Under the pieces are notes generated by a model. The model did not search any database and had not been told where the DNA came from. It saw nothing but the letters and a program-made list of their open reading frames with translations. A DNA stretch of 10,625 nucleotides, from the IMG/VR virus record IMGVR_UViG_2737471862_000005, positions 1-10,625 of that record. One strand, written 5' to 3'. Positions within the stretch are counted from its first letter, which is position 1. Each line of letters opens with the position of its first letter. Positions 1 to 10,625 of this stretch are shown here, one piece after another. A program made the position numbers and the translations under genes. Origin of the DNA: a virus. Taxonomy: Duplodnaviria; Heunggongvirae; Uroviricota; Caudoviricetes.

Positions 1-8
1 TCACTCTG

Positions 9-31
9 CCAGATGGCGCAATGCCATCTGG
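9..31 (+). terminator. Candidate hairpin/intrinsic terminator in host flank, probably 3' of the upstream host gene (ybhB side)
   Basis: Perfect 9-bp inverted repeat CCAGATGGC (9-17) / GCCATCTGG (23-31) with 5-nt loop; downstream sequence only moderately T-rich. Confidence 0.3.
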
Positions 32-90
32 TATCACTTAAAGGTATTAAAAACAACTTTTTGTCTTTTTACCTTCCCGTTTCGCTCAAG

Positions 91-105
91 TTAGTATAAA
101 AAAGC
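91..105 (-). repeat. attR core (15-bp common core, reverse complement of GCTTTTTTATACTAA), flanked on the left by the attB B' arm
   Basis: ttagtataaaaaagc at 91-105; reverse complement of 75-90 reads CTTGAGCGAAACGGG, matching the B' arm of attB as I recall it. Confidence 0.9.
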
Positions 106-250
106 TGAACGAGAAACATAAAATGTTATAAATATCAATATATTACATTTTATTTCGTATAAAAAACAGACTAGATAATACTGTAAAACACAACATATGC
201 AGTCACTATGAATCAACTACTTAGATGGTATTAGTGACCTGTAACAGAGC
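106..250 (-). promoter_or_regulatory. Lambda attP P arm with arm-type Int binding sites
   Basis: CAGTCACTAT at 200-209 and inverted AGGTCACTAAT (reverse complement of 230-240) match the arm-site consensus C/AAGTCACTAT; the surrounding AT-rich sequence matches my recollection of the P arm. Confidence 0.8.
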
Positions 251-292
251 ATTAGCGCAAGGTGATTTTTGTCTTCTTGCGCTAATTTTTTG
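251..292 (+). terminator. sib / tI hairpin (int retroregulation site and terminator), here separated from int by the prophage arrangement
   Basis: 11-bp perfect stem ATTAGCGCAAG (251-261) / CTTGCGCTAAT (276-286), 14-nt loop, followed by TTTTTT (287-292). Confidence 0.6.
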
Positions 293-627
293 TCGTAAAA
301 TCGGTAACGTCTGGAAATCATTCAATATTCGCACTATCGGAAGTTCACCAGCCAACCGCAGCACGTTATTGCATACAACGTACTGCGGCATAAAACCAAT
401 GATTATTCCTTCCCGCACATGACATACCGCGACTTTATTTATCCCCAGCAGGAAATTTTTCATACAACTTCGCCCCACCAACATCACAGGTAATTGTTCC
501 GCCTGTGTATTCTCGCGCCAACATCTACCACAATTTGTTTTCATAGGATTGTAGTCACTCTTCTGGTTGTTTCACATAATAACTTGTATACTTCAGATAG
601 TATTCATAACCTCAAACTATTTAATGT

Positions 628-634
628 ATAAATT
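628..634 (+). promoter_or_regulatory. Candidate extended -10 element upstream of the 239-aa gene
   Basis: TGTATAAAT at 626-634, about 30 bp upstream of the ATG at 663; AGGA Shine-Dalgarno at 651-654; no convincing -35. Confidence 0.25.
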
Positions 635-662
635 AGATCTGAAAGTTTAGGAAAGATTTTCT

Positions 663-1382
663 ATGTTGATCGTTTCTGTACTACGCTGCGGCAAGGATTT
701 TACGCCGAAACATGCACAATGGCTTCATAAACAATTTGGTTCAATGCCCTCAATCTGCTTGACTGATGCTGGAAGTATTGATGGTGTGAATACTGCACCT
801 TTGTTATTTGATTGGCCTGGTTGGTGGTCAAAAATGGAGTTATTTAACCCAAACCATCCAGTAATCGGGAATCATGACATTTTATATTTTGACATAGATG
901 TTGTCATTACTGGAAAATTGGATATTTTTACAAAAGCTAAAAATTTCACCATGCTCAGGGAGTTTAATCATCATGACCGTGTTAACTCCTCAATTATGAT
1001 GATTCCCGTTTCTGCAAAGACAAAAATATGGGAGGAATTTACTGCCAATCCTGAACAAATAATGCAAGAATGCAAAACTGAAGATAAATGGGGTGATCAA
1101 GGTTTTATCGGTAGTGTTACTAAGCCAGACTTATGGCAGGACATTATTCCAGATGCAATTAAAAGTTATAAATGCGATATAGCAACAAAATCAATGATTG
1201 GATACAATCCAGACCTGGCATCAAAATCAGCAACTGGGAAAGTACCTGACAGTGTTTCAGTTGTGTGTTTTCACGGTAGTCCACGCCCCTGGCGCACTGG
1301 TTTTAACTGGGTTCCATCTTTTTCTTTAAAAGATACGCTTTATGGCAAAGTAAAAAATCTCAAATTAAAGGTTAAAGGTTAA
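663..1382 (+). CDS. Hypothetical 239-aa protein, non-lambda b-region cargo; has a DxD-like stretch (LYFDIDVVITG) reminiscent of GT-A nucleotide-sugar transferases
   Basis: Long ORF with upstream SD; sits where lambda carries ea59 but is unrelated to it in size; partly AT-rich; function not recognisable. Confidence 0.6.
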   Translation: MLIVSVLRCGKDFTPKHAQWLHKQFGSMPSICLTDAGSIDGVNTAPLLFDWPGWWSKMELFNPNHPVIGNHDILYFDIDVVITGKLDIFTKAKNFTMLREFNHHDRVNSSIMMIPVSAKTKIWEEFTANPEQIMQECKTEDKWGDQGFIGSVTKPDLWQDIIPDAIKSYKCDIATKSMIGYNPDLASKSATGKVPDSVSVVCFHGSPRPWRTGFNWVPSFSLKDTLYGKVKNLKLKVKG

Positions 1383-1397
1383 AGGTTAAAGGTTAAA
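1365..1397. repeat. Heptamer tandem repeat (TTAAAGG) x4 plus a partial fifth copy, overlapping the stop codon of the 239-aa ORF
   Basis: Perfect copies at 1365-1371, 1372-1378, 1379-1385, 1386-1392, then TTAAAAT. Confidence 0.9.
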
Positions 1398-1402
1398 ATC
1401 AT

Positions 1403-1425
1403 AACCACTCGCATAGCGGGTGGTT
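1403..1425 (-). terminator. Candidate terminator hairpin between the convergent 239-aa gene and tfa
   Basis: AACCACTCGC (1403-1412) / GCGGGTGGTT (1416-1425), 9 of 10 pairs, 3-nt loop; on the minus strand it is followed by AUGAUUUUAA, about 70 nt past the tfa stop. Confidence 0.35.
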
Positions 1426-1495
1426 ATCTGTCTCAGCCACGATACGCCTGAAACTGGCTTTAAGTCAGCAATAATAAAAGGAGTAAATCCTTCCG

Positions 1496-2065
1496 TTATT
1501 GTGGTTGCACAGGCCAAACTGGCTCAAGAATATCAACACGGTTCAGCAATACCCGATACTTCTTCCAGGCTGTCAGCAACGATATTTCTTCCTCCGTTGC
1601 AATCTCCAGATCTACCGCATCCTGAAGTGGCGAAATATGCTCACTGGCTACCTGCATCAGGCTGTTTTTTGTTTCTTCCGCCTCCCGGATCCGGAACAGT
1701 TTTTCTGCTTCTGCATCTTTCACCCAGGCTGTGCCGTTCCACTTCTGAAACTCCCCTTCCGGCGATAACCAGGTAACATTTTCCGGTAACGGACCGAGTT
1801 CAGAAATAAATAAAGCATCACCGGAAGTTACGTCATATACAGTTTTACCTCGGTGGTCTTCAACAATATTCCAAGATTTATTCTCACTGTTAAAAACAGC
1901 CACAAATCCAGCCTCCACATCTGGTGGTGCTATATCTGTAGTATTAGCTGGTAGACCTGTATACGGTGGGATATATGCGTCACTTTCCCCAATAAATTCA
2001 TTGGTTCCATCAAGTAAATTAAATACGCGGATAGTTTGTGCTTCTGCACTCATTCTGAAAGTCAT
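1496..2065 (-). CDS. tfa: Tail fiber assembly protein Tfa
   Basis: 189-aa translation ([27 protein letters not shown]...[28 protein letters not shown]...) is near-identical over most of its length to lambda Tfa as I recall it; start ATG overlaps the stf stop as TAATG. Confidence 0.9.
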
Positions 2066-3570
2066 TATGCAAGCCTCACAATATAGTTAAATGCGATGTT
2101 TTTGACGGTGTTTTCGGTATTACCAGTAGCATTTACGGTAATGGAATGCCCGTGTGAGCCAATGGCAACAGTGTGTGAATGTGCACCAATACCAACAGTA
2201 TGGTTATGTGCTCCAATGTCGACTGTATGTGCATGATTGCCTGATGAACTAGTAGTCGTAGCACCTTTATCACTTCGCGGAACACCATAATTTGCACCGC
2301 CTGATTGCACGCTCACAGCAAAACCGACGGTATGTGTATGATTGCCTGAAGTATTGGTTGATTTTGTGCCGTGGTTAAACGTACTGACTGTCTTCGTGCC
2401 GTAATCAAATGAACTGGTCGTTTTCGTCCCTAAATCCGTATTTGACGCACTGGCGCTGTGAGTATGCGATTTAATCCCGTCCTGTTCCTGTGATAATACA
2501 GCACGCCCACTGGCGGGTTTGCCCTTGATTGTCCAGCCGCGCATATCCGGAATAACACCAGAAGGATAGGCTATAGCCAGTTTCGGATATGCAGATTTGT
2601 CAAAAGTCTGCCCCTGCATCAGGGCATAGCCAGACGGAACGGTATCTGATGGCCACGGGATTGGTGCGCCGACTGGATAAAACTCTGCAGGAGGATGAGC
2701 CGAGGTGTAAAGCTGCGCCCACGGCGACCAGTTTGCGTCGGTCGTATCCCGTCGTGAACGAATAAATGCCGGAGCATGAGCACCGCTTGTACCACTCCAG
2801 CCGATGAGTAACTCACCTTCGCCAACGGCTGTCATCCCTTTCAGGTGAATGATATTTCCATACGCTGTTGGATATCCGTTGTTATACACCTCGTATAACT
2901 CAAGACCTGCTGCCCCCTGCGTATTGTCTGTCAGCGCGGCTACCCGACCTTTTGAAGCCAGATTAACTGATGATACTGCTGTTCCACCTGACGGTAGCGC
3001 CCCGATCTCTGATGCCGTTGGCTTATTTCTGGAGTTATAGTCCCTTCGCCAACCAGGTGAATAATCTGTTCCGTGATTAATATAGGTAAACTGGGCGTTG
3101 GTTGTTCCGCCACCGCTGGATGTGGTCGGAGTGGTAATGCGGATCGTCATCGCTGACTTTATCCCCATTACTTCAATGACAGCTCCGGCGAGATGAATAT
3201 TACCGCAGCCAGTATCAGTAATGATTTTATTATTGCCATAAGACCAGGAACCCTTGCACATCCAGTATGGATGGTTAAATGCTCCCTGAGAATCCAGCCA
3301 CTCGATAAACTGTGCAGTCGTCCAGTTTCCTGTTGTTGTGCTTACTGACCCACCGAAGGCACGGCAGGCACCAATATTTTTCGTAAAGGTATCTTTGCCA
3401 GGGATATCCGCACCGTTCTGATCTTTCTGCAGACGTTTCTCAGCATTGTCATTGGCTGCTTTTACTGCCTTTGGTGTCGCGGCAAGCGTTTCAGACGTGC
3501 TGTTGGTCGCGCTGCTTAGCTGGATTATCCCTTTCTGTGCTGTCGTTGCATCCTGTGCGGTGTATTTCCC
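2065..3570 (-). pseudogene. stf: Side tail fiber gene stf, 5'-truncated: C-terminal ~500 codons retained with no in-frame start at the truncation point
   Basis: Frame is open from the junction to the TAA at 2065-2067; contains the tail-fiber motif [38 protein letters not shown], repeated HxH motifs and the C-terminus ...[13 protein letters not shown]; first in-frame ATG is internal at 3261. Confidence 0.85.
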
Positions 3571-3768
3571 GTTAACGATGAAACCATGCAGGAGATTAAC
3601 ACTCTGCTGATCGCCCTGGATAAAACATGGGATGACGACTTATTGCCGCTCTGTTCCCAGATATTTCGCCGCGACATTCGCGCATCGTCAGAACTGACAC
3701 AGGCCGAAGCAGTGAAAGCTCTTGGATTCCTGAAACAGAAAGCCACTGAGCAGAAGGTGGCAGCATGA
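3568..3768 (+). pseudogene. bet: bet (Red-beta) 3' fragment, last ~66 codons only
   Basis: Translation ...[66 protein letters not shown] matches the lambda Bet C-terminus; upstream sequence is tail-fiber antisense, not bet. Confidence 0.85.
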
Positions 3769-4445
3769 CACCGGACATTATCCTGCAGCGTACCGGGATC
3801 GACGTGAGAGCTGTCGAACAGGGGGATGATGCATGGCACAAATTACGGCTCGGCGTCATCACCGCTTCAGAAGTTCACAACGTGATAGCAAAGCCCCGCT
3901 CCGGAAAAAAGTGGCCTGACATGAAAATGTCCTACTTCCACACCCTGCTGGCTGAGGTTTGCACCGGTGTGGCTCCGGAAGTTAATGCTAAGGCGCTGGC
4001 ATGGGGAAAACAGTACGAGAACGACGCCAGAACTCTGTTTGAATTCACTTCCGGCGTGAATGTTACTGAATCCCCGATCATCTATCGCGACGAAAGTATG
4101 CGTACCGCCTGCTCTCCCGATGGTTTATGCAGTGACGGCAATGGCCTTGAGCTGAAATGCCCGTTTACCTCCCGGGATTTCATGAAGTTCCGGCTCGGTG
4201 GTTTCGAGGCCATAAAGTCGGCTTACATGGCCCAGGTGCAGTACAGCATGTGGGTGACGCGAAAAGATGCCTGGTACTTTGCCAACTATGACCCGCGTAT
4301 GAAGCGTGAAGGCCTGCATTATGTCGTGGTTGAGCGGGATGAAAAGTACATGGCGAGTTTTGACGAGATGGTGCCGGAGTTCATCGAAAAAATGGACGAG
4401 GCACTGGCTGAAATTGGTTTTGTATTTGGGGAGCAATGGCGATGA
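3765..4445 (+). CDS. exo: Lambda exonuclease (Red-alpha)
   Basis: 226-aa translation matches lambda Exo almost residue for residue; ATG overlaps the bet stop (ATGA); SD AAGGTGG upstream. Confidence 0.95.
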
Positions 4446-4624
4446 AGCATCCTCACGATAATATCCGGGTAGGTGCGATCATTTTCGTCTACTCCGTTAC
4501 AAAGCGAGGCTGGGTATTTCCCGGCCTTTCTGTTATCAGAAATCCCCTGAAAGCACAGCGGCTGGCTGAGGAGATAAATAATAAACGGGGAGCTGTATGC
4601 ACAAAGCATCTCCCGTTGAGTTAA
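4442..4624 (+). CDS. orf60a: Exo-xis region protein Orf60a
   Basis: 60-codon ORF whose ATG (4442) overlaps the exo stop as ATGA; the ORF track start at 4436 is an upstream in-frame ATG. Confidence 0.75.
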
Positions 4625-4788
4625 GAACGAGTATCGAGATGGCACATAGCCTCGCTCAAATTGGAGTCAGGTTTGTGCCAATACCAGTAGAAACAGACGA
4701 AGAATTTCATACGTTAGCCGCATCCCTTTCACAAAAGCTGGAAATGATGGTGGCGAAAGCAGAAGCAGATGAGAGAGACCAGGTATGA
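4597..4788 (+). CDS. orf63: Exo-xis region protein Orf63
   Basis: 63-aa ORF in the expected position and order after orf60a. Confidence 0.75.
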   Translation: MHKASPVELRTSIEMAHSLAQIGVRFVPIPVETDEEFHTLAASLSQKLEMMVAKAEADERDQV

Positions 4789-4868
4789 CAACCACTGAAT
4801 GCATTTTTCTGGCAGCGGGCTTCATATTCTGTGTGCTTATGCTTGCCGACATGGGGCTTGTTCAATGA
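4785..4868 (+). CDS. Candidate 27-aa hydrophobic micro-ORF (MTTTECIFLAAGFIFCVLMLADMGLVQ)
   Basis: ATG overlaps the orf63 stop (ATGA, 4785-4788) and its TGA overlaps the next ATG (ATGA, 4865-4868); almost entirely hydrophobic, consistent with a single membrane helix. Confidence 0.3.
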   Translation: MTTTECIFLAAGFIFCVLMLADMGLVQ

Positions 4869-5080
4869 CACCTCAGCAAGAAAACGCCCTTCGCAGCATT
4901 GCCCGTCAGGCTAATTCTGAAATCAAAAAAGCCAGACAGCAGTTTCCGGATAAAAACGTCGATGACATTTGCCGTAGCGTACTGAAGAAGCACCGCGAAA
5001 CGGTAACGCTGATGGGATTCACACCGACTCATTTAAGCCTGGCAATCGGCATGTTAAACGGCGTCTTTAAGGAACGATGA
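4865..5080 (+). CDS. Exo-xis region small protein (orf61-like position), 71 aa from the ATG at 4865
   Basis: Same frame as ORF-track 4799..5080; the ATG at 4865 is coupled to the upstream micro-ORF stop; exact start uncertain. Confidence 0.55.
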   Translation: MTPQQENALRSIARQANSEIKKARQQFPDKNVDDICRSVLKKHRETVTLMGFTPTHLSLAIGMLNGVFKER

Positions 5081-5102
5081 ACATGAAAAGCAAAATTATC
5101 AG

Positions 5103-5124
5103 GGAGCTACAGGCTCCTTTTTTA
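5103..5124 (+). terminator. Candidate intrinsic terminator in the exo-xis region
   Basis: GGAGC (5103-5107) / GCTCC (5113-5117) stem, 5-nt loop, followed by TTTTTTAT (5118-5125). Confidence 0.4.
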
Positions 5125-5178
5125 TTGCTCGCATTTACCCCCAAGCGTATTAACCAACAATTCAGGGATTAATGGAAG

Positions 5179-5400
5179 ATGGCAGACATCATTGATTCAG
5201 CATCAGAAATTGAAGAATTACAGCGCAACACAGCAATAAAAATGCGCCGCCTGAACCACCAGGCTGTATCTGCCACTCATTGTTGTGAGTGTGGCGATCC
5301 CATAGATGAGCTAAGACGCCTGGCCGTTCAGGGTTGTCGGACTTGTGCAAGTTGCCAGGAAGATCTGGAGCTTATCAGTAAACAGAGAGGTTCGAAGTGA
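5179..5400 (+). CDS. orf73: TraR/DksA-family C4 zinc-finger protein (lambda Orf73-like)
   Basis: 73 aa with CxxC-N17-CxxC (CCECGDP...CRTCASC) typical of TraR/DksA zinc fingers; position matches orf73 in the exo-xis region. Confidence 0.75.
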   Translation: MADIIDSASEIEELQRNTAIKMRRLNHQAVSATHCCECGDPIDELRRLAVQGCRTCASCQEDLELISKQRGSK

Positions 5401-5648
5401 GCGTAATTCACTCTCAGGCACTGCGTGAAGCGGCAGAGCAGGCAATGCCTGACAACTGGGGATTTGACGCGGACCTTTTCCATGAGCTGGTAACACCATC
5501 GATTGTGCTGACACTGCTGGATGAACGGGAAAGAAACCAGCAATACATCAAACGCCGCGACCAGGAGAACGAGGATATTGCGCTAACGGTGGGGAAACTG
5601 CGTGTTGAGCTGGAGACAGCAAAAATCAAAACTCAACGAGCAGCGTGA
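5397..5648 (+). CDS. ea22: Ea22-like protein, N-terminal 83 codons, ending at an in-frame TGA (see findings)
   Basis: GTG start overlapping the orf73 stop (GTGA); called from its position after orf73 in the expected exo-xis gene order; the same frame stays open for 53 more codons after the TGA. Confidence 0.55.
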   Translation: MSVIHSQALREAAEQAMPDNWGFDADLFHELVTPSIVLTLLDERERNQQYIKRRDQENEDIALTVGKLRVELETAKIKTQRAA

Positions 5649-5946
5649 GTAGAAGGTGTTATCTCGGATGGAAGTAAGCGTATTGCTGAACTGGAGGCCT
5701 GGGTTGAATACACAAGAGCTGCATACGTAAGAGCAAAAGACAAGGGAGATTTGATCAGAGTTATTACCCGCCAACCAACGGGATTTTACGCTTACGTACC
5801 ATGTAATTAGGAATCCTTGAAGTGGCAGCCTAACTGCGGATACACTGAAATGGCGATTTGGTAACATGTTTCGCACAAGGCTGTTACTACACTTAGAGAT
5901 AATCAGCCATGATTAAACGCTTTGTAAAAAGTAAAAGGAAATTACA

Positions 5947-6561
5947 ATGAAAAAATCAATACTAATTTTAGGGCTTACGTTAATTGTCTCATCTCAAATA
6001 CCATCGGCAATGGCAAAAAATGAATCAAAACTATGGGTTGTTGTTGATCGAACGGAAAGACATACCTGCCCTTCAAGTAAATGTGGAGTGGCTGGGAAAC
6101 TATTTTTCAGGGAAGGCGTAGATTTTCTAGAAAAAAAAGGTGAATGGGTTCGTATAACTGAGCCATATTCAGCCTCATGTGTTGGAGGGGAAAGCGAATA
6201 TATTAAAGAAGGTAATAAATCCTGCACAAGAAAAAATGGAATCGTTAATGGCAAGTTTTCAGAATGGGTTAAACTTAGTGATCTTAGCAGTGAAAGGCCA
6301 TCAGATCCTGCTGAAAATGCGAGCGGAGATGATACTTTAATCAAAGGATCTGATGACTACCGTATATACAAAAAAGAGTTTTCTTCGGCAGCTAGGAAGT
6401 TAATAAATGAAGGGGTCTGCACGGAAAGCGATTTTAAGGAAATCGGAGGGTGGATGGCATCAAGCAATAAGGGTGAAAACATCTATTTCACATATTGCGG
6501 AGGAATGACGTTGTCGAACAGAATATACCTAGATGTTAAAAGTGGAAAGACTTTTAGATAA
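5947..6561 (+). CDS. Secreted (Sec signal peptide) Cys-rich 204-aa protein of unknown function; AT-rich cargo gene
   Basis: N-terminus MKKSILILGLTLIVSSQIPSAMA/KNESK with AxA cleavage motif; six Cys in the mature part; SD AAGGA 7 nt upstream; a sampled 60-nt stretch is ~30% GC. Confidence 0.75.
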   Translation: MKKSILILGLTLIVSSQIPSAMAKNESKLWVVVDRTERHTCPSSKCGVAGKLFFREGVDFLEKKGEWVRITEPYSASCVGGESEYIKEGNKSCTRKNGIVNGKFSEWVKLSDLSSERPSDPAENASGDDTLIKGSDDYRIYKKEFSSAARKLINEGVCTESDFKEIGGWMASSNKGENIYFTYCGGMTLSNRIYLDVKSGKTFR

Positions 6562-6630
6562 TATGATATTACCAATGACAGTATTGATTTAATGCCTCCA
6601 TAGAATTATCTCTAGGAAGTAGGTATAAGA

Positions 6631-6668
6631 AAAGCCCGCACAATGAGCTGCTGCGGGCTTTGTGTTAT
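6631..6668 (+). terminator. Intrinsic terminator (possibly bidirectional) downstream of the 204-aa gene
   Basis: 10-bp stem AAAGCCCGCA (6631-6640) / TGCGGGCTTT (6652-6661), 11-nt loop, followed by GTGTTATT; A-tract upstream and T-tract downstream. Confidence 0.55.
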
Positions 6669-6711
6669 TCGCCATATTTTATGAAGCAAATACGACACTA
6701 TAGATAATTAA

Positions 6712-6812
6712 GCGTTGCTGGTTGTCGATTCCTCAATCACTCCTGTTGATGGCTCTCTTCTTGTATGTGCCATTGAAGGGGAATATCGCGTAAAAAGATA
6801 CCGGAAGTATCC
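6712..6812 (+). pseudogene. Fragment of an S24 peptidase (LexA/UmuD/CI-type) C-terminal domain
   Basis: Frame opens right after a TAA and reads LLVVDSSITPVDGSLLVCAIEGEYRVKRYRKYP, resembling UmuD [34 protein letters not shown] and LexA VVVARIDDEVTVKRLKK; no N-terminal part and no continuation in any frame. Confidence 0.5.
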
Positions 6813-6854
6813 GCGCCGCCATGATTGTCTTTCTCCTGATGCAGGAAAAGCAGA

Positions 6855-7193
6855 ATGGCTAAATCAGCAACAGAGCACAAAGCCGATCAGAGAGCCAAGC
6901 AAGCATCATCCGGTATGCGTAAGCTGGAGCTTGTACTTGATGCTCAGGAAATTGAAATGCTGGAGCGTAACTGTGCCACGCGTCGCTTCAGGCGTGCGCC
7001 TTGCGAGTTTGGTGAGTACATCGCGTTACTGAGCCGCCAGGATGATGCACGTGTGCGCTGGCGTATAAAATCGATCAGCAGAAAACGGTGCGGTAAGTGC
7101 GGCGAGAGAGTTCCTGTTAATTCATGCCCGTGTAATGGTGACTCACAATGCTGGGTGACCAAAGGCTGGCACGAAACAAAATTAATGATATAA
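6855..7193 (+). CDS. Small DNA-binding-type protein: ribbon-helix-helix-like N-terminal region plus C-terminal zinc ribbon; possibly the Ea8.5 counterpart
   Basis: 112-aa ORF with SD AGGA 8 nt upstream; RKLELVLDAQEIEMLERNCATRRFRRAPCEFGEYIALL fits a beta-alphaA-alphaB RHH pattern; C-terminus CGKCG...CPC...C...H is a zinc-ribbon motif. Confidence 0.6.
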   Translation: MAKSATEHKADQRAKQASSGMRKLELVLDAQEIEMLERNCATRRFRRAPCEFGEYIALLSRQDDARVRWRIKSISRKRCGKCGERVPVNSCPCNGDSQCWVTKGWHETKLMI

Positions 7194-7199
7194 ATCTCT

Positions 7200-7211
7200 G
7201 TGACATGTCAC
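7200..7211. promoter_or_regulatory. Perfect 12-bp palindrome GTGACATGTCAC in the 28-bp spacer between the 112-aa and 142-aa genes; candidate operator
   Basis: Exact dyad symmetry read directly from the sequence; lies just 5' of the GGAGG SD (7213-7217) of the 142-aa ORF. Confidence 0.4.
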
Positions 7212-7221
7212 GGAGGCGGCA

Positions 7222-7650
7222 ATGAAATTAGACCAGCAATATCTAAAAGATCTACTTATCGCATTCGAAAAAACTCGTGGCCCTGACACGATGCTTAGTG
7301 AACTAGAGGATAATGGCTTTAATAGATATGACCAAGATTTTATTTTCCATATGCGATTATTATGTGACTACGAATTAATAGTCAGGGTTGATGGAAAACC
7401 TGGGTTCGGTCATATATTGTCCAAAGCGTTAGGGGAAGGTGTTGGATATAGTTGGATCGAAGTACCACTGAGGTTGACAGCAAGAGGGCATGATTTTATT
7501 GCTGACTTACGTCAAAAGGATGTCTGGCAAGCTATAAAAACAAACTTTAAGGATGAGGGAATTAGTACACTTATGAGTGTTTCAAAATCACTAGCAAAAG
7601 GCTTTGCAAGGAAAAAGATAAAAGATATTACAGGAATAGATATTGAATAA
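7222..7650 (+). CDS. Hypothetical 142-aa cytoplasmic protein; AT-rich cargo gene
   Basis: Strong SD GGAGG 5 nt upstream of the ATG; no signal peptide; visibly AT-rich; followed by a terminator. Confidence 0.7.
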   Translation: MKLDQQYLKDLLIAFEKTRGPDTMLSELEDNGFNRYDQDFIFHMRLLCDYELIVRVDGKPGFGHILSKALGEGVGYSWIEVPLRLTARGHDFIADLRQKDVWQAIKTNFKDEGISTLMSVSKSLAKGFARKKIKDITGIDIE

Positions 7651-7695
7651 TTCTTAGCATCAAGCAACTACTGCCTTTGGTGGAAATTATATCTG

Positions 7696-7720
7696 AACTC
7701 GCTACGGCGAGTTTTGTTTT
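7696..7720 (+). terminator. Intrinsic terminator downstream of the 142-aa gene
   Basis: AACTCGC (7696-7702) / GCGAGTT (7707-7713), 4-nt loop TACG, followed by TTGTTTT (7714-7720). Confidence 0.55.
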
Positions 7721-7733
7721 ATGGAGATGATAA

Positions 7734-7901
7734 ATGCACTTCCGAGTCACAGGTAAATGGAATGGAGAGCCATTCAACAGGGTTATCGAAGCAGAGAACA
7801 TCAACGACTGTTATAACCACTGGATGATATGGGCGCAGATAGCACATGCAGACGTAACCAATATTCGAATTGAAGAACTGAAAGAACACCAAGCCGCCTG
7901 A
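7734..7901 (+). CDS. orf55: Exo-xis region protein Orf55
   Basis: 55-codon ORF (MHFRVTGKWNGEPFNRVIEAENINDCYNHWMIWAQIAHADVTNIRIEELKEHQAA) with SD GGAG 8 nt upstream; below the ORF-track size cutoff; lies immediately upstream of xis. Confidence 0.65.
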   Translation: MHFRVTGKWNGEPFNRVIEAENINDCYNHWMIWAQIAHADVTNIRIEELKEHQAA

Positions 7902-7914
7902 TGGCGGTTTTTTC
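7893..7914 (+). terminator. Weak candidate terminator overlapping the orf55 stop
   Basis: GCCGCC (7893-7898) / GGCGG (7903-7907) with loop TGAT, followed by TTTTTTC. Confidence 0.3.
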
Positions 7915-7955
7915 TTGCGTGTAATTGCGGAGACTTTGCGATGTACTTGACACTT
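7915..7955 (+). promoter_or_regulatory. pI (int promoter) region with cII-type TTGC-N6-TTGC recognition motif
   Basis: TTGC at 7915-7918 and 7925-7928 separated by 6 nt, just upstream of and overlapping the xis 5' end, as in lambda pI. Confidence 0.55.
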
Positions 7956-8159
7956 CAGGAGTGGAACGCACGCCAGCGACGCCCAAGAAGCCTTGAAACA
8001 GTTCGTCGATGGGTACGCGAGTGCAGGATATTCCCTCCTCCGGTTAAGGATGGAAGAGAGTATCTGTTCCACGAATCAGCGGTAAAGGTTGACTTAAATC
8101 GACCAGTAACAGGTAGCCTTTTGAAGAGGATCAGAAATGGGAAGAAGGCGAAGTCATGA
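7941..8159 (+). CDS. xis: Excisionase Xis
   Basis: 72-aa translation MYLTLQEWNARQRRPRSLETVRRWVRECRIFPPPVKDGREYLFHESAVKVDLNRPVTGSLLKRIRNGKKAKS matches lambda Xis; 3' end overlaps int by 23 nt. Confidence 0.95.
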   Translation: MYLTLQEWNARQRRPRSLETVRRWVRECRIFPPPVKDGREYLFHESAVKVDLNRPVTGSLLKRIRNGKKAKS

Positions 8160-9207
8160 GCGCCGGGATTTACCCCCTAACCTTTATATAAGAAACAATG
8201 GATATTACTGCTACAGGGACCCAAGGACGGGTAAAGAGTTTGGATTAGGCAGAGACAGGCGAATCGCAATCACTGAAGCTATACAGGCCAACATTGAGTT
8301 ATTTTCAGGACACAAACACAAGCCTCTGACAGCGAGAATCAACAGTGATAATTCCGTTACGTTACATTCATGGCTTGATCGCTACGAAAAAATCCTGGCC
8401 AGCAGAGGAATCAAGCAGAAGACACTCATAAATTACATGAGCAAAATTAAAGCAATAAGGAGGGGTCTGCCTGATGCTCCACTTGAAGACATCACCACAA
8501 AAGAAATTGCGGCAATGCTCAATGGATACATAGACGAGGGCAAGGCGGCGTCAGCCAAGTTAATCAGATCAACACTGAGCGATGCATTCCGAGAGGCAAT
8601 AGCTGAAGGCCATATAACAACAAACCCTGTCGCTGCCACTCGCGCAGCAAAATCAGAGGTAAGGAGATCAAGACTTACGGCTGACGAATACCTGAAAATT
8701 TATCAAGCAGCAGAATCATCACCATGTTGGCTCAGACTTGCAATGGAACTGGCTGTTGTTACCGGGCAACGAGTTGGTGATTTATGCGAAATGAAGTGGT
8801 CTGATATCGTAGATGGATATCTTTATGTCGAGCAAAGCAAAACAGGCGTAAAAATTGCCATCCCAACAACATTGCATGTTGATGCTCTCGGGATATCAAT
8901 GAAGGAAACACTTGATAAATGCAAAGAGATTCTTGGCGGAGAAACCATAATTGCATCTACTCGTCGTGAACCGCTTTCATCCGGCACAGTATCAAGGTAT
9001 TTTATGCGCGCACGAAAAGCATCAGGTCTTTCCTTCGAAGGGGATCCGCCTACCTTTCACGAGTTGCGCAGTTTGTCTGCAAGACTCTATGAGAAGCAGA
9101 TAAGCGATAAGTTTGCTCAACATCTTCTCGGGCATAAGTCGGACACCATGGCATCACAGTATCGTGATGACAGAGGCAGGGAGTGGGACAAAATTGAAAT
9201 CAAATAA
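8137..9207 (+). CDS. int: Tyrosine integrase Int
   Basis: 356-aa translation MGRRRSHERRDLPPNLYIRNNGYYCYRDPRTGKEFGLGRDRRIAITEAIQ... matches lambda Int at full length; stop codon abuts the P' arm. Confidence 0.97.
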   Translation: MGRRRSHERRDLPPNLYIRNNGYYCYRDPRTGKEFGLGRDRRIAITEAIQANIELFSGHKHKPLTARINSDNSVTLHSWLDRYEKILASRGIKQKTLINYMSKIKAIRRGLPDAPLEDITTKEIAAMLNGYIDEGKAASAKLIRSTLSDAFREAIAEGHITTNPVAATRAAKSEVRRSRLTADEYLKIYQAAESSPCWLRLAMELAVVTGQRVGDLCEMKWSDIVDGYLYVEQSKTGVKIAIPTTLHVDALGISMKETLDKCKEILGGETIIASTRREPLSSGTVSRYFMRARKASGLSFEGDPPTFHELRSLSARLYEKQISDKFAQHLLGHKSDTMASQYRDDRGREWDKIEIK

Positions 9208-9282
9208 TGATTTTATTTTGACTGATAGTGACCTGTTCGTTGCAACAAATTGATAAGCAATGCTTTTTTATAATGCCAACTT
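9208..9282 (-). promoter_or_regulatory. Lambda attP P' arm with arm-type Int sites
   Basis: Reverse complement of 9210-9229 gives AGGTCACTAT and CAGTCAAAAT; reverse complement of the whole segment matches the P' arm as I recall it (TTGGCATTATAAAAAAGCATTGCTTATCAATTTGTTGCAACGAACAGGTCACTATCAGTCAAAATAAAATCATT). Confidence 0.85.
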
Positions 9283-9297
9283 AGTATAAAAAAGCAG
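9283..9297 (-). repeat. attL core (15-bp common core), followed by the attB B arm
   Basis: ttagtataaaaaagc at 9283-9297, identical to 91-105; the next bases caggcttca are the reverse complement of the B arm TGAAGCCTG. Confidence 0.9.
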
Positions 9298-9341
9298 GCT
9301 TCAACGGATTCATTTTTCTATTTCATAGCCCGGAGCAACCT

Positions 9342-10625
9342 GTGAACACATTTTCAGTTTCCCGTCTGGCGCTGGCATTGGCTTTTGGCGTGACGCTGAC
9401 CGCCTGTAGCTCAACCCCGCCCGATCAACGTCCTTCTGATCAAACCGCGCCTGGTACCTCTTCTCGCCCGATTCTGTCGGCAAAAGAAGCGCAGAATTTC
9501 GATGCTCAACACTATTTTGCATCCCTGACACCAGGTGCTGCAGCGTGGAATCCTTCCCCGATTACCCTGCCTGCGCAACCTGACTTTGTTGTCGGCCCGG
9601 CGGGCACTCAAGGTGTAACGCATACCACGATTCAGGCGGCGGTAGATGCGGCAATTATCAAGCGTACCAACAAGCGCCAGTATATTGCCGTGATGCCTGG
9701 TGAGTATCAGGGAACGGTATATGTCCCTGCCGCTCCGGGTGGAATTACTCTGTACGGTACAGGTGAAAAACCGATTGATGTGAAGATTGGGCTTTCCCTT
9801 GATGGTGGCATGAGCCCTGCCGACTGGCGTCACGACGTCAACCCGCGCGGCAAATATATGCCAGGTAAACCAGCGTGGTATATGTACGATAGCTGCCAGA
9901 GCAAACGCAGCGACAGTATCGGTGTTCTCTGCTCTGCGGTCTTCTGGTCACAAAACAATGGCCTGCAACTGCAAAATCTGACCATCGAAAACACGCTGGG
10001 CGATAGCGTAGATGCAGGTAACCATCCGGCGGTGGCACTGCGTACTGATGGTGACCAGGTACAGATTAACAACGTTAACATTCTCGGTCGTCAGAACACC
10101 TTCTTTGTCACCAACAGCGGTGTGCAGAACCGTCTGGAAACGAATCGTCAGCCGCGTACGCTGGTGACCAACAGCTACATTGAAGGGGATGTGGATATCG
10201 TTTCTGGTCGCGGCGCAGTGGTGTTCGATAACACCGAATTCCGCGTGGTGAACTCACGTACTCAGCAAGAAGCGTATGTGTTTGCACCGGCTACGCTGTC
10301 CAACATTTACTACGGTTTCCTCGCCGTAAACAGCCGTTTCAATGCTTTCGGTGATGGTGTGGCGCAACTGGGCCGCTCGCTGGATGTTGATGCCAATACC
10401 AACGGTCAGGTGGTGATCCGTGATAGCGCCATCAACGAAGGTTTTAACACGGCTAAACCGTGGGCCGATGCGGTGATCTCTAATCGTCCGTTTGCGGGTA
10501 ATACCGGCAGCGTAGATGATAACGACGAAATACAGCGCAATCTGAATGACACTAACTACAACCGCATGTGGGAATACAATAACCGCGGCGTGGGTAGTAA
10601 AGTGGTTGCAGAGGCGAAGAAGTAA
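9342..10625 (+). CDS. ybhC: Host outer-membrane lipoprotein YbhC (pectinesterase-family acyl-CoA thioesterase)
   Basis: 427-aa ORF with GTG start, SD GGAG 8 nt upstream, signal peptide with lipobox LTAC; recognised as E. coli YbhC, the gene adjacent to attB. Confidence 0.9.
   Translation: MNTFSVSRLALALAFGVTLTACSSTPPDQRPSDQTAPGTSSRPILSAKEAQNFDAQHYFASLTPGAAAWNPSPITLPAQPDFVVGPAGTQGVTHTTIQAAVDAAIIKRTNKRQYIAVMPGEYQGTVYVPAAPGGITLYGTGEKPIDVKIGLSLDGGMSPADWRHDVNPRGKYMPGKPAWYMYDSCQSKRSDSIGVLCSAVFWSQNNGLQLQNLTIENTLGDSVDAGNHPAVALRTDGDQVQINNVNILGRQNTFFVTNSGVQNRLETNRQPRTLVTNSYIEGDVDIVSGRGAVVFDNTEFRVVNSRTQQEAYVFAPATLSNIYYGFLAVNSRFNAFGDGVAQLGRSLDVDANTNGQVVIRDSAINEGFNTAKPWADAVISNRPFAGNTGSVDDNDEIQRNLNDTNYNRMWEYNNRGVGSKVVAEAKK

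Follow-up and report, generated by a model that had tools for sequence, protein, structure and literature searches.

The cryptic prophages of E. coli K-12 are defective lambdoid remnants, several of which keep their integrase and tail-fibre/tfa ends. Rac, Qin, e14 and DLP12 of this strain have been given as λ-type elements (PMC3032704, Table 2). At the phage lambda attachment site itself, between ybhC and ybhB, known remnants are λB in E. coli B and λCr in strain Crooks/ATCC 8739 (PMC4395058, PMC3032704). Defective prophages have also been documented as DNA donors to infecting temperate phages (PMC3945230).

Here we analysed a window of 10,625 nt, which in E. coli strain ES5 spans the interval from ybhB to ybhC, the lambda attB locus. 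An earlier note on this DNA had described an att-flanked lambda remnant and suspected that similar remnants were already known, a suspicion borne out by λB and λCr at the same site. In our view the element is, with high probability, an ordinary dead lambda-family prophage at lambda attB, the middle of which was lost in one accidental deletion of ~37 kb.

Attachment junctions and occupancy of the site

In the RefSeq annotation the ES5 locus is flanked by bio on one side and by ybhJ...gal on the other, and window position 1 directly follows the ybhB stop codon. The element, of 9,205 bp, lies in attB, with ybhB on its bio side and ybhC on its gal side, and is flanked by two identical 15-bp lambda cores in direct repeat, both reading TTAGTATAAAAAAGC, the reverse complement of the lambda core GCTTTTTTATACTAA. 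The features of the junctions are the following:

1–90, no strand: host sequence lying downstream of ybhB, with the attB B' arm at its end; identical to empty-site genomes
91–105, minus strand: 15-bp lambda core of attR (POB', reverse complement)
106–300, minus strand: P arm of attR; 94.9% identical to lambda 27529–27742, also aligned base by base
9208–9280, minus strand: P' arm of attL, with three arm-type Int sites (reverse complement of CAGGTCACTATCAGTCAAAATAAAAT, about 9210–9236); 100% identical to lambda
9281–9295, minus strand: 15-bp lambda core of attL (BOP', reverse complement), by sequence match
9296–10625, plus strand: host DNA with the B arm and ybhC (9342–10625), from ORFs, annotation and comparison with empty sites

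The four bases after the core are CAAG (B') on the left and CAAC (P') on the right, as expected, and the left and right junctions are therefore attR and attL, respectively. The P arm is identical to lambda 27535–27654 and carries 8 substitutions between lambda 27655 and 27711, presumably within the Xis/Fis-binding stretch of the attP map. Since the same substitutions are found in the isolated phage Chlobot, their presence there suggests that they are tolerated. From the lambda attP map, we take CAGTCACTAT at 201–210 to be the P2 arm-type Int site and the reverse complement of AGGTCACTAA, at about 231–240, to be P1. An inverted repeat at 244–293, within the attR P-arm segment, forms a tI/sib-type hairpin with a T-run. 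On the other side, identity to lambda (27739–27880) extends over the P' arm and as far as the int stop codon.

When attP was rebuilt from both junctions, it differed from the Chlobot attP at 2 of 790 positions. Similarly, rejoining window 1–105 to 9296–9490 gave a 300-bp sequence matching, at 100% identity, the empty attB found in many E. coli genomes. Cores, arms and rebuilt attB thus agree with the claim of the earlier note that both prophage–host junctions are intact, with 15-bp cores as direct repeats and both arm sets. That claim had been made dependent on an alignment of the arms with those of lambda attP, and we observed an identical P' arm at attL and a lambda-like P arm at attR, both with arm-type Int sites. 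The element had been placed at 91–9297, of which the start holds, whereas the end lies 2 nt past the core.

Among 5,426 complete E. coli genomes, about 35% (1,920) carry an occupied lambda attachment site, and 3,489 empty sites were counted. The λB form is present in 43 of these genomes, compared to a single one for the exact deletion and architecture of ES5. Counting small remnants was tried with a 25-kb empty-site query, for which flanks could be joined across inserts of up to 13 kb. The count by subtraction was unusable: at least 3,473 places at ≥80% coverage were obtained, a lower bound that falls short of the 3,489 empty sites, and short repeats within the query may also have interfered. 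In an evenly spaced sample examined with this query, 20 rows were split at attB, indicating inserts of >13 kb, and H177, the sole candidate for a small insert, was rejected as its insert lies between yvcK and uvrB and not at attB. attB(λ) in natural E. coli is often not 'empty', which is relevant to lambda integration and to the use of lambda-based tools in wild strains.

Retained and missing functions

The whole window is accounted for by aligned segments. Between the junctions described above, these carry:

221–544, minus strand: b-region ORF of 107 aa; its Chlobot counterpart is annotated as hypothetical, and Pfam, PHROG and PADLOC gave no match
663–1382, plus strand: 239-aa accessory gene of the b region, GC 0.38; phrog_1962 (E = 4e-76, labelled 'glycosyltransferase', moron category), no Pfam match
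1496–2065, minus strand: tail-fibre assembly gene tfa, 189 aa, intact; annotation and Pfam Caudo_TAP (E = 1e-37)
2065–3574, minus strand: side tail-fibre gene, 3' half only, with the 503 C-terminal codons; matches Pfam Phage_fiber_2 and Collar, and phrog_295 over positions 393–794 of 794
3567–3574, no strand: deletion junction with microhomology GTTA (TCCnGTTA), from a three-way alignment
3571–3768, plus strand: 3' end of bet, last 66 codons, pseudogene; aligns with Chlobot bet, RefSeq 'Bet, missing N-terminus'
3765–4445, plus strand: exo (Red exonuclease), 226 aa, intact; 3 amino-acid differences from lambda Exo
4442–7901, plus strand: non-essential early-left accessory region, from annotation and family scans; includes DUF1317, DUF1382, a TraR/DksA zinc-finger gene, a frameshifted Ea22-like gene, a UmuD-like fragment and a 55-aa ORF
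5947–6561, plus strand: 204-aa ORF of this accessory region
6855–7193, plus strand: 112-aa ORF of this accessory region, PHROG labelled 'transcriptional regulator'
7222–7650, plus strand: DUF2513 gene of this accessory region
7941–8159, plus strand: xis, 72 aa, intact; 1 substitution relative to lambda, none relative to Chlobot
8137–9207, plus strand: int, 356 aa, intact; 3 substitutions relative to lambda

Int is a tyrosine recombinase in which the catalytic residues R212, K235, H308, R311, H333 and Y342 are all present, and it adjoins attL together with Xis. Both genes are full length, as had been proposed. A recombination module had also been described as kept; this is correct for int, xis and exo, but not for Red as a whole, of which gam is gone and bet is reduced to its end. 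Retention of the tail-fibre tip was confirmed by the C-terminal codons of the fibre gene and the intact tfa. The N-terminus, start codon and promoter of this fibre gene are deleted, and RefSeq lists it as a pseudogene missing its N-terminus. Its frame stays open across the deletion junction, with no start codon before 3261.

The early-left genes and their pseudogene annotations are the same as in the intact prophage of strain 8GC. Decay of early-left genes is therefore older than the deletion, and no decay after the deletion is visible in the retained part. Every gene retained in ES5 that has an intact copy in live relatives has remained intact.

Neither the RefSeq annotation of the source record nor family scans revealed cI, cro, N, O, P, Q or any lysis, head or tail-shaft gene, and the lambda cohesive-end sequence GGGCGGCGACCT had no match in the window, even with 2 mismatches allowed. 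The element thus lacks the essentials of the lytic cycle (immunity and regulation, replication, lysis, packaging site and virion genes), the very set whose loss the earlier note had reported. Without repressor, origin, lysis genes and cos, neither immunity, replication, lysis nor packaging is possible, and we agree that the prophage is defective in the last three. Since pL and N are deleted, as is cII, which is needed by the pI promoter, int and xis are probably intact genes deprived of their expression signals. No fortuitous promoter upstream of bet'/exo was seen in a scan for promoter-like sites, and such sites are not enriched in the window (15 compared to a shuffle mean of 18.8).

The deletion junction and its interpretation

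A single internal junction, at 3570/3571–3574, joins the truncated tail-fibre gene to the end of bet. The side tail-fibre sequence is 99% identical to full-length fibres of other prophages and matches this parent through 3574, while the bet parent matches exactly from 3571 and at 7 of 8 positions from 3567. At position 3570 the window has the tail-fibre allele and not the base found in bet of Chlobot and of strain 8GC. Alignment revealed no IS or repeat at the junction, and no transposase is annotated by RefSeq in the window. IS-mediated deletion, suggested by the IS1 at the equivalent place in ATCC 8739, was consequently rejected, the GTTA join being direct and without IS. A junction with 4-bp microhomology and no IS element argues for one illegitimate deletion of about 37 kb. 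A recent and lineage-specific event fits an architecture seen in one of the 5,426 genomes.

What was deleted can be judged from relatives of the parent phage. Chlobot matches window 87–2711 and 3567–9295 at 99.4–99.5%, with only 2 real mismatches in 87–2676, and is collinear over a contiguous stretch running from the tail fibre through the b region, attP and int to bet. Full prophages with the same early-left region adjoin ybhC in strains 8GC and EP91B and continue with gam, cIII, N, repressor, O/P, Q, lysis and terminase genes. Among the complete genomes and phages in the collections searched, none covered ≥80% of window 1–3574, with the same b region and the same tail-fibre mosaic, so that the parent is reconstructed from two partial matches. 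As judged by these alignments, it is a lambda-family phage nearly identical to Chlobot and to full prophages occupying the same site in many E. coli, and not lambda itself. The description as a lambda remnant is accordingly right in that the element is lambda-type and att-flanked and wrong as to its parent, lambda aligning to only 44% of the window. Likewise, the retained genes were expected to align with lambda, which is the case for int, xis, the exo region and, in diverged form, the tail fibre and tfa, but not for the b region and the ea8.5 stretch. The parental type still circulates as free phage and as full prophages.

The order of events that we infer is as follows. A complete Chlobot-like temperate phage of the lambda family would have integrated between ybhB and ybhC by Int-mediated recombination of attP with attB. 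One RecA-independent illegitimate recombination would then have joined the inside of bet to the middle of the side tail-fibre gene at the 4-bp microhomology. Lost with it would have been gam, the immunity, replication, Q and lysis regions, cos, every head gene and every tail gene as far as the first half of the tail-fibre gene, which left a 9.2-kb cryptic prophage. We likewise infer transcriptional silence, and the element is most likely a stable, silent passenger. Excision in trans may nevertheless occur: a phage of lambda specificity supplying Int and Xis would be expected to excise a non-replicating circle and restore attB. Homologous recombination with such a phage could also exchange markers, either in the early-left DNA (5.7 kb) or in the b-region and tail-fibre DNA (3.5 kb). 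The intact sites and the donor role documented for defective prophages (PMC3945230) are consistent with a candidate substrate for Int/Xis in trans and a candidate sequence donor.

One could alternatively expect a domesticated element maintained by selection, either for its accessory genes (the 239-aa moron, the 204-aa and DUF2513 proteins, exo) or for an occupied attB hindering lysogenisation by phages of lambda specificity. The intactness of every retained gene that is intact in live relatives agrees with this, but is equally expected soon after a recent deletion, given 99.5–99.9% identity to intact prophages. Several accessory ORFs have a low GC content (0.36–0.38), which is typical of morons. 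However, PADLOC, used to scan the accessory ORFs for defence systems, gave no convincing match (one weak hit, to the TraR/DksA zinc-finger ORF, E = 0.0019), and there is no promoter evidence. Small att-flanked remnants arose at least three times independently at this site (ES5 and λCr, the latter by IS1-bounded deletions, and λB), yet the single occurrence of the ES5 architecture shows neither spread nor persistence. We consider such selection unlikely. In its site-occupying form, the element would alter infection by lambda-specificity phages through the conversion of attB to attL/attR, exo, the tail-fibre tip with tfa, and the low-GC genes, a proposal to which we give little credence. If true, normal lysogeny could be blocked, the element swapped out, or host-range cassettes donated, and the repeated independent appearance of 9–12-kb att-flanked remnants at one site would reflect selection.

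The junction could also be an assembly artefact, a full-length ES5 prophage having been collapsed or mis-joined. The chromosome is indeed a whole-genome-shotgun record and the junction is unique among the 5,426 genomes. Nevertheless, the joined sequences have only 4 to 8 bp in common, far too little for repeat-driven collapse, their orientation and order are those of a simple internal deletion in an integrated prophage, and genuine remnants of a similar kind are present in the finished genomes of B and Crooks strains. An artefact is thus very improbable. Finally, a phage satellite or PICI-like mobilisable island, using a helper lambdoid phage for excision and transfer, was rejected as hardly credible: its own int and xis, intact att sites and a size of 9.2 kb, within the satellite range, would suit it, but neither a cos match nor replication module, primase, repressor, helper-interference or capsid-redirecting or -remodelling genes were found, and segments that are all collinear with an ordinary lambdoid genome, with two truncated genes meeting at a microhomology junction, point to deletion instead of an evolved satellite.

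An ordinary prophage inactivated by deletion hence remains our preferred reading. It provides a clean, datable case of prophage death, by a single 37-kb deletion at a microhomology, after which no further decay is visible. With its intact attL/attR, int and xis, the element could conveniently serve as a natural substrate in excision assays, which implies no new biology; beyond good annotation its importance is small.

Comparison with related phages and known remnants

Compared to phage lambda (NC_001416), the ES5 element shows no change in the att core and P' arm, differences of 1–3 residues in Int, Xis and Exo, and 96.6% identity in the DNA from the bet 3' end through exo towards ea22. In contrast, other genes take the place of the lambda b region (ea47, ea31, ea59) and of the ea8.5 stretch in ES5, and tail fibre and tfa are only 82–84% identical. 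Chlobot (PP925838) and the full ybhC prophages of 8GC and EP91B are closer, with 99.4–99.9% identity over the retained segments and the same accessory genes. They are complete, at 46.5 kb, whereas ES5 lacks about 37 kb, and its tail-fibre gene contains a mosaic block (2677–3566) unlike theirs. Rac, Qin, e14 and DLP12 use other attachment sites and integrases, and are older and more decayed than the ES5 element.

λB (E. coli B strains REL606 and BL21; 12.1 kb) occupies the same ybhC–ybhB site with lambda-type attL/attR, as in ES5. The two elements share identical RefSeq Int (WP_000533643.1, the protein annotated in the REL606 remnant) and Xis (WP_001303849.1), and both are small remnants without immunity and replication genes. 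The interior of λB differs, with ASCH, DUF4752 and DUF551 genes and fragments of lysis and terminase genes; it also has a tail-fibre assembly gene and two acyltransferases and, unlike ES5, no exo. λB was apparently swapped out when DE3 was installed in BL21.

λCr (Crooks/ATCC 8739), at the same site and of nearly the same size, is 98% identical to ES5 from exo through int and attL, and 91% at the attR junction. Its deletion is IS1-bounded and extends from a b-region acetyltransferase fragment to cIII; λCr keeps cIII, kil, gam, bet and exo, carries no tail-fibre DNA and has a second IS1 in the accessory region. The ES5 deletion, in contrast, is free of IS elements and has its endpoints within bet and the tail-fibre gene. 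With λB and λCr known before it, the ES5 element brings the independent small remnants at the lambda attachment site to three, and it is of a kind already documented.

Chromosomal site and attachment junctions

The window is found at 100% identity in E. coli ES5, an isolate from the sediment of a frog farm in China (NZ_CM184343.1, 1478609-1489233), where its left end directly follows the stop codon of ybhB and its right end coincides with that of ybhC. With bioA-bioBFCD on its left and ybhJ, ybhI and onward to gal on its right, the insertion lies at the classical attachment locus of lambda. Compared with how the lambda prophage is usually drawn, the window is reversed, with attR and the right end of the phage on the left and int and attL on the right.

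In a repeat search, 87-105 and 9277-9295 came out as direct repeats matching at 18 of 19 nt. Positions 91-105 and 9281-9295 agree at all 15 bases and read as the lambda core GCTTTTTTATACTAA on the opposite strand, in agreement with the earlier note, which had read identical 15-bp cores at both junctions. The sole mismatch, at 90/9280, corresponds exactly to what distinguishes B′ from P′, which identifies the left junction as attR (POB′) and the right one as attL (BOP′). Window 1-105 joined to 9296-9490 is 100% identical to the unoccupied site in many E. coli genomes. By this comparison, insertion of the ES5 element (the 9,205-bp att-flanked prophage remnant, 91-9295) was precise, and precise excision would recreate a natural attB.

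We reconstructed attP from both junctions and aligned it with lambda 27480-27880. The core, P′ arm and int 3′ end were all identical to lambda. The P arm showed no difference across 27535-27654, which we take to hold the arm-type sites P1 and P2 and the first IHF site, and eight substitutions, all within 27655-27711, presumably the Xis/Fis stretch and the edges of the second IHF site. Both arms thus align with lambda, as had been proposed. The WATCAANNNNTTR match of the putative second IHF site was kept despite the neighbouring substitutions, and P-arm homology stops left of lambda 27529. Since Chlobot, an isolated lambda-family phage (PP925838), has the same attP (788/790 positions agree), the P-arm variants are naturally occurring alleles that a functional phage carries.

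The lambda tI/sib position is taken by a hairpin with a T-run (ACAGAGCATTAGCGCAAG ... CTTGCGCTAATTTTTTGT), which in the prophage state is at the far end of the element from int. Immediately past the P arm, RefSeq places a 'capsid protein' pseudogene fragment (293-391); this label looks like annotation noise, the DNA at 295-389 being 87.5% identical to the lambda b-region stretch 24161-24256.

Retained and missing functions

Features of the ES5 element, from left to right
244-293, + strand (hairpin): P arm with tI/sib-type hairpin
Right of the P arm: 107-aa ORF, function not assigned
663-1382: 239-aa b-region gene, low GC, phrog_1962, labelled 'glycosyltransferase'
Next: tfa, intact
Right of tfa: side tail-fibre gene, C-terminal 503 codons only
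Right of the tail-fibre fragment: bet, last 66 codons only
Right of bet: exo, intact
Right of exo: small non-essential early-left genes, the first being DUF1317, DUF1382 and a TraR/DksA zinc-finger gene
Early-left run: Ea22-like gene, frameshifted
5947-6561: 204-aa ORF, phrog_8310
Early-left run: UmuD-like fragment
Early-left run: 112-aa ORF, PHROG labelled 'transcriptional regulator'
7222-7650: DUF2513 gene
Last of the early-left run: 55-aa ORF
Right end: xis, int, P′ arm and core, in that order

As read earlier, int and xis are full length. Int (356 aa) differs from lambda Int by H164P, A245T and I248V and retains R212, K235, H308, R311, H333 and Y342; Xis carries a single change (G59S) and Exo three residue differences. 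Three low-GC ORFs (GC 0.36-0.38) with no assigned function, at 663-1382, 5947-6561 and 7222-7650, gave no match to PADLOC defence models, and the first gave no Pfam match. Across the stop codon of this first ORF, TTAAAGG (7 bp) is repeated four times in tandem (1365-1392), the same number as in Chlobot.

Nothing similar to cI, cro, N, cII, O, P, Q, lysis, terminase, head or tail-shaft genes was detected in the window by annotation and family scans, nor any match to the lambda cohesive-end sequence with two mismatches allowed, so that the losses called from sequence inspection stand. The recombination module, described as kept, is only partly so: exo is intact, but gam is gone and bet truncated, and the Red system is incomplete. 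Without a repressor the element confers no immunity, without an origin its excised circle would be lost, and without cos it cannot be packaged. Transcription of lambda int/xis needs pL with N, or pI with cII; these routes are deleted here. A consensus scan gave no promoter-like site 5′ of bet′/exo and no overall enrichment. On these grounds, we consider the ES5 element a probable silent, stable passenger.

Probable origin by internal deletion

Pairwise BLAST resolved the window into two blocks contiguous in a lambda-family phage genome, 87-2711 (b region, tfa and fibre tip) and 3567-9295 (bet 3′ end through int to attP). Chlobot matches each block at 99.4-99.5% identity and has the two as one unbroken tail fibre, b region, attP, int ... 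bet stretch; 87-2676 has two real mismatches only. The proposed 'lambda remnant' is thus a lambda-family prophage remnant, but its parent was not lambda itself. The tail-fibre sequence 2677-3566 is a different mosaic block, 99% identical to fibres of other E. coli prophages, including prophages at other sites, e.g. one adjoining ssrA. Its boundary inside the tail-fibre gene is sharp, Chlobot identity falling from >99.9% to none, or to 84% over a short stretch.

In a three-way alignment, the tail-fibre parent agrees through 3574. The exact match of the bet parent begins at 3571 and extends back to 3567 if a mismatch at 3570 is allowed; at that position the window has the tail-fibre base. The two matches therefore share GTTA (TCCnGTTA). 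No IS, repeat or recombinase site was found at the junction in this alignment. The truncated tail-fibre and bet genes point away from it; given the prophage gene order (attL, int ... exo, bet ... cI ... A ... J, stf, tfa, attR), this is exactly the arrangement left when an integrated prophage simply loses an internal segment. The missing part is ~36.8 kb, as gauged on Chlobot (46,491 bp). The view that everything in between was deleted can hence be refined to a single deletion with a defined GTTA junction, which bears the signature of an illegitimate, microhomology-mediated event.

E. coli strains 8GC and EP91B carry full prophages beside ybhC with the same early-left region, which go on with gam, kil, cIII, N, repressor, cro, cII, O, P, Q and lysis genes, that of 8GC extending further into terminase and portal genes. 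The Ea22-like frameshift and DNA-repair fragment pseudogene annotations are already in the 8GC prophage, so no post-deletion decay is visible in the ES5 element; the deletion looks recent.

Frequency and relation to known remnants

Among 5,426 complete E. coli genomes, attB was empty in 3,489, and the lambda-type attL (P′ arm, core, ybhC) and attR (ybhB, core, P arm) junctions were present in 1,920 and 1,921, respectively; a lambda-specificity element therefore occupies the site in ~35% of genomes. In an evenly spaced sample, the insert exceeded 13 kb at 20/20 occupied sites. Small att-flanked remnants occupy at least 49 of about 1,920 sites: the exact ES5 architecture was found in 1 genome, the λCr type in 5 (ATCC 8739/Crooks and four related genomes) and the 12.1-kb λB type of E. 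coli B in 43. This represents at least three independent formation events.

Judging from the intact sites and known lambda biology, the likely fates of the ES5 element are further decay, Int/Xis-mediated excision upon infection by a lambda-specificity phage, or homologous exchange with such a phage. PMC3945230 deals with how temperate phages use Rad52-like recombinases to acquire DNA from defective prophages.

Window 1-3574 also has matches of ~60% coverage in E. coli 55989, O104:H4 strains and many others. Among the features there, a gene for a sensor diguanylate cyclase (GGDEF) stands between the genes for tail-fibre assembly and the tail fibre; it looks to be a b-region moron belonging to another lambdoid prophage. 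E. coli E400634 has a 4.5-kb insertion between yvcK and uvrB (4221-8615 of the examined locus), unrelated to attB, encoding a pentapeptide-repeat protein and several hypothetical proteins.

With the refinements given above, the earlier note's observation and its reading both hold. Similar remnants are indeed known, as it had supposed: 'ybhC-ybhB' is listed as the site of λB and λCr (PMC3032704, Table 2), and PMC4395058 describes the λB prophage, which BL21 and REL606 have at attB, as common to the B lineage. BL21 carries λB where BL21(DE3) carries DE3 (PMC4395058), which suggests to us that installing a lambda derivative can displace a remnant of this type. The λB remnant of REL606 encodes Int (WP_000533643.1) and Xis (WP_001303849.1) identical to the ES5 proteins, whereas its interior differs. 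λCr is nearly the same size as the ES5 element; unlike the latter, its deletion is bounded by IS1 and cIII through exo are kept. This kind of element is well known and documented specifically at the same site in laboratory strains, and the ES5 variant is a new yet unremarkable case of it.
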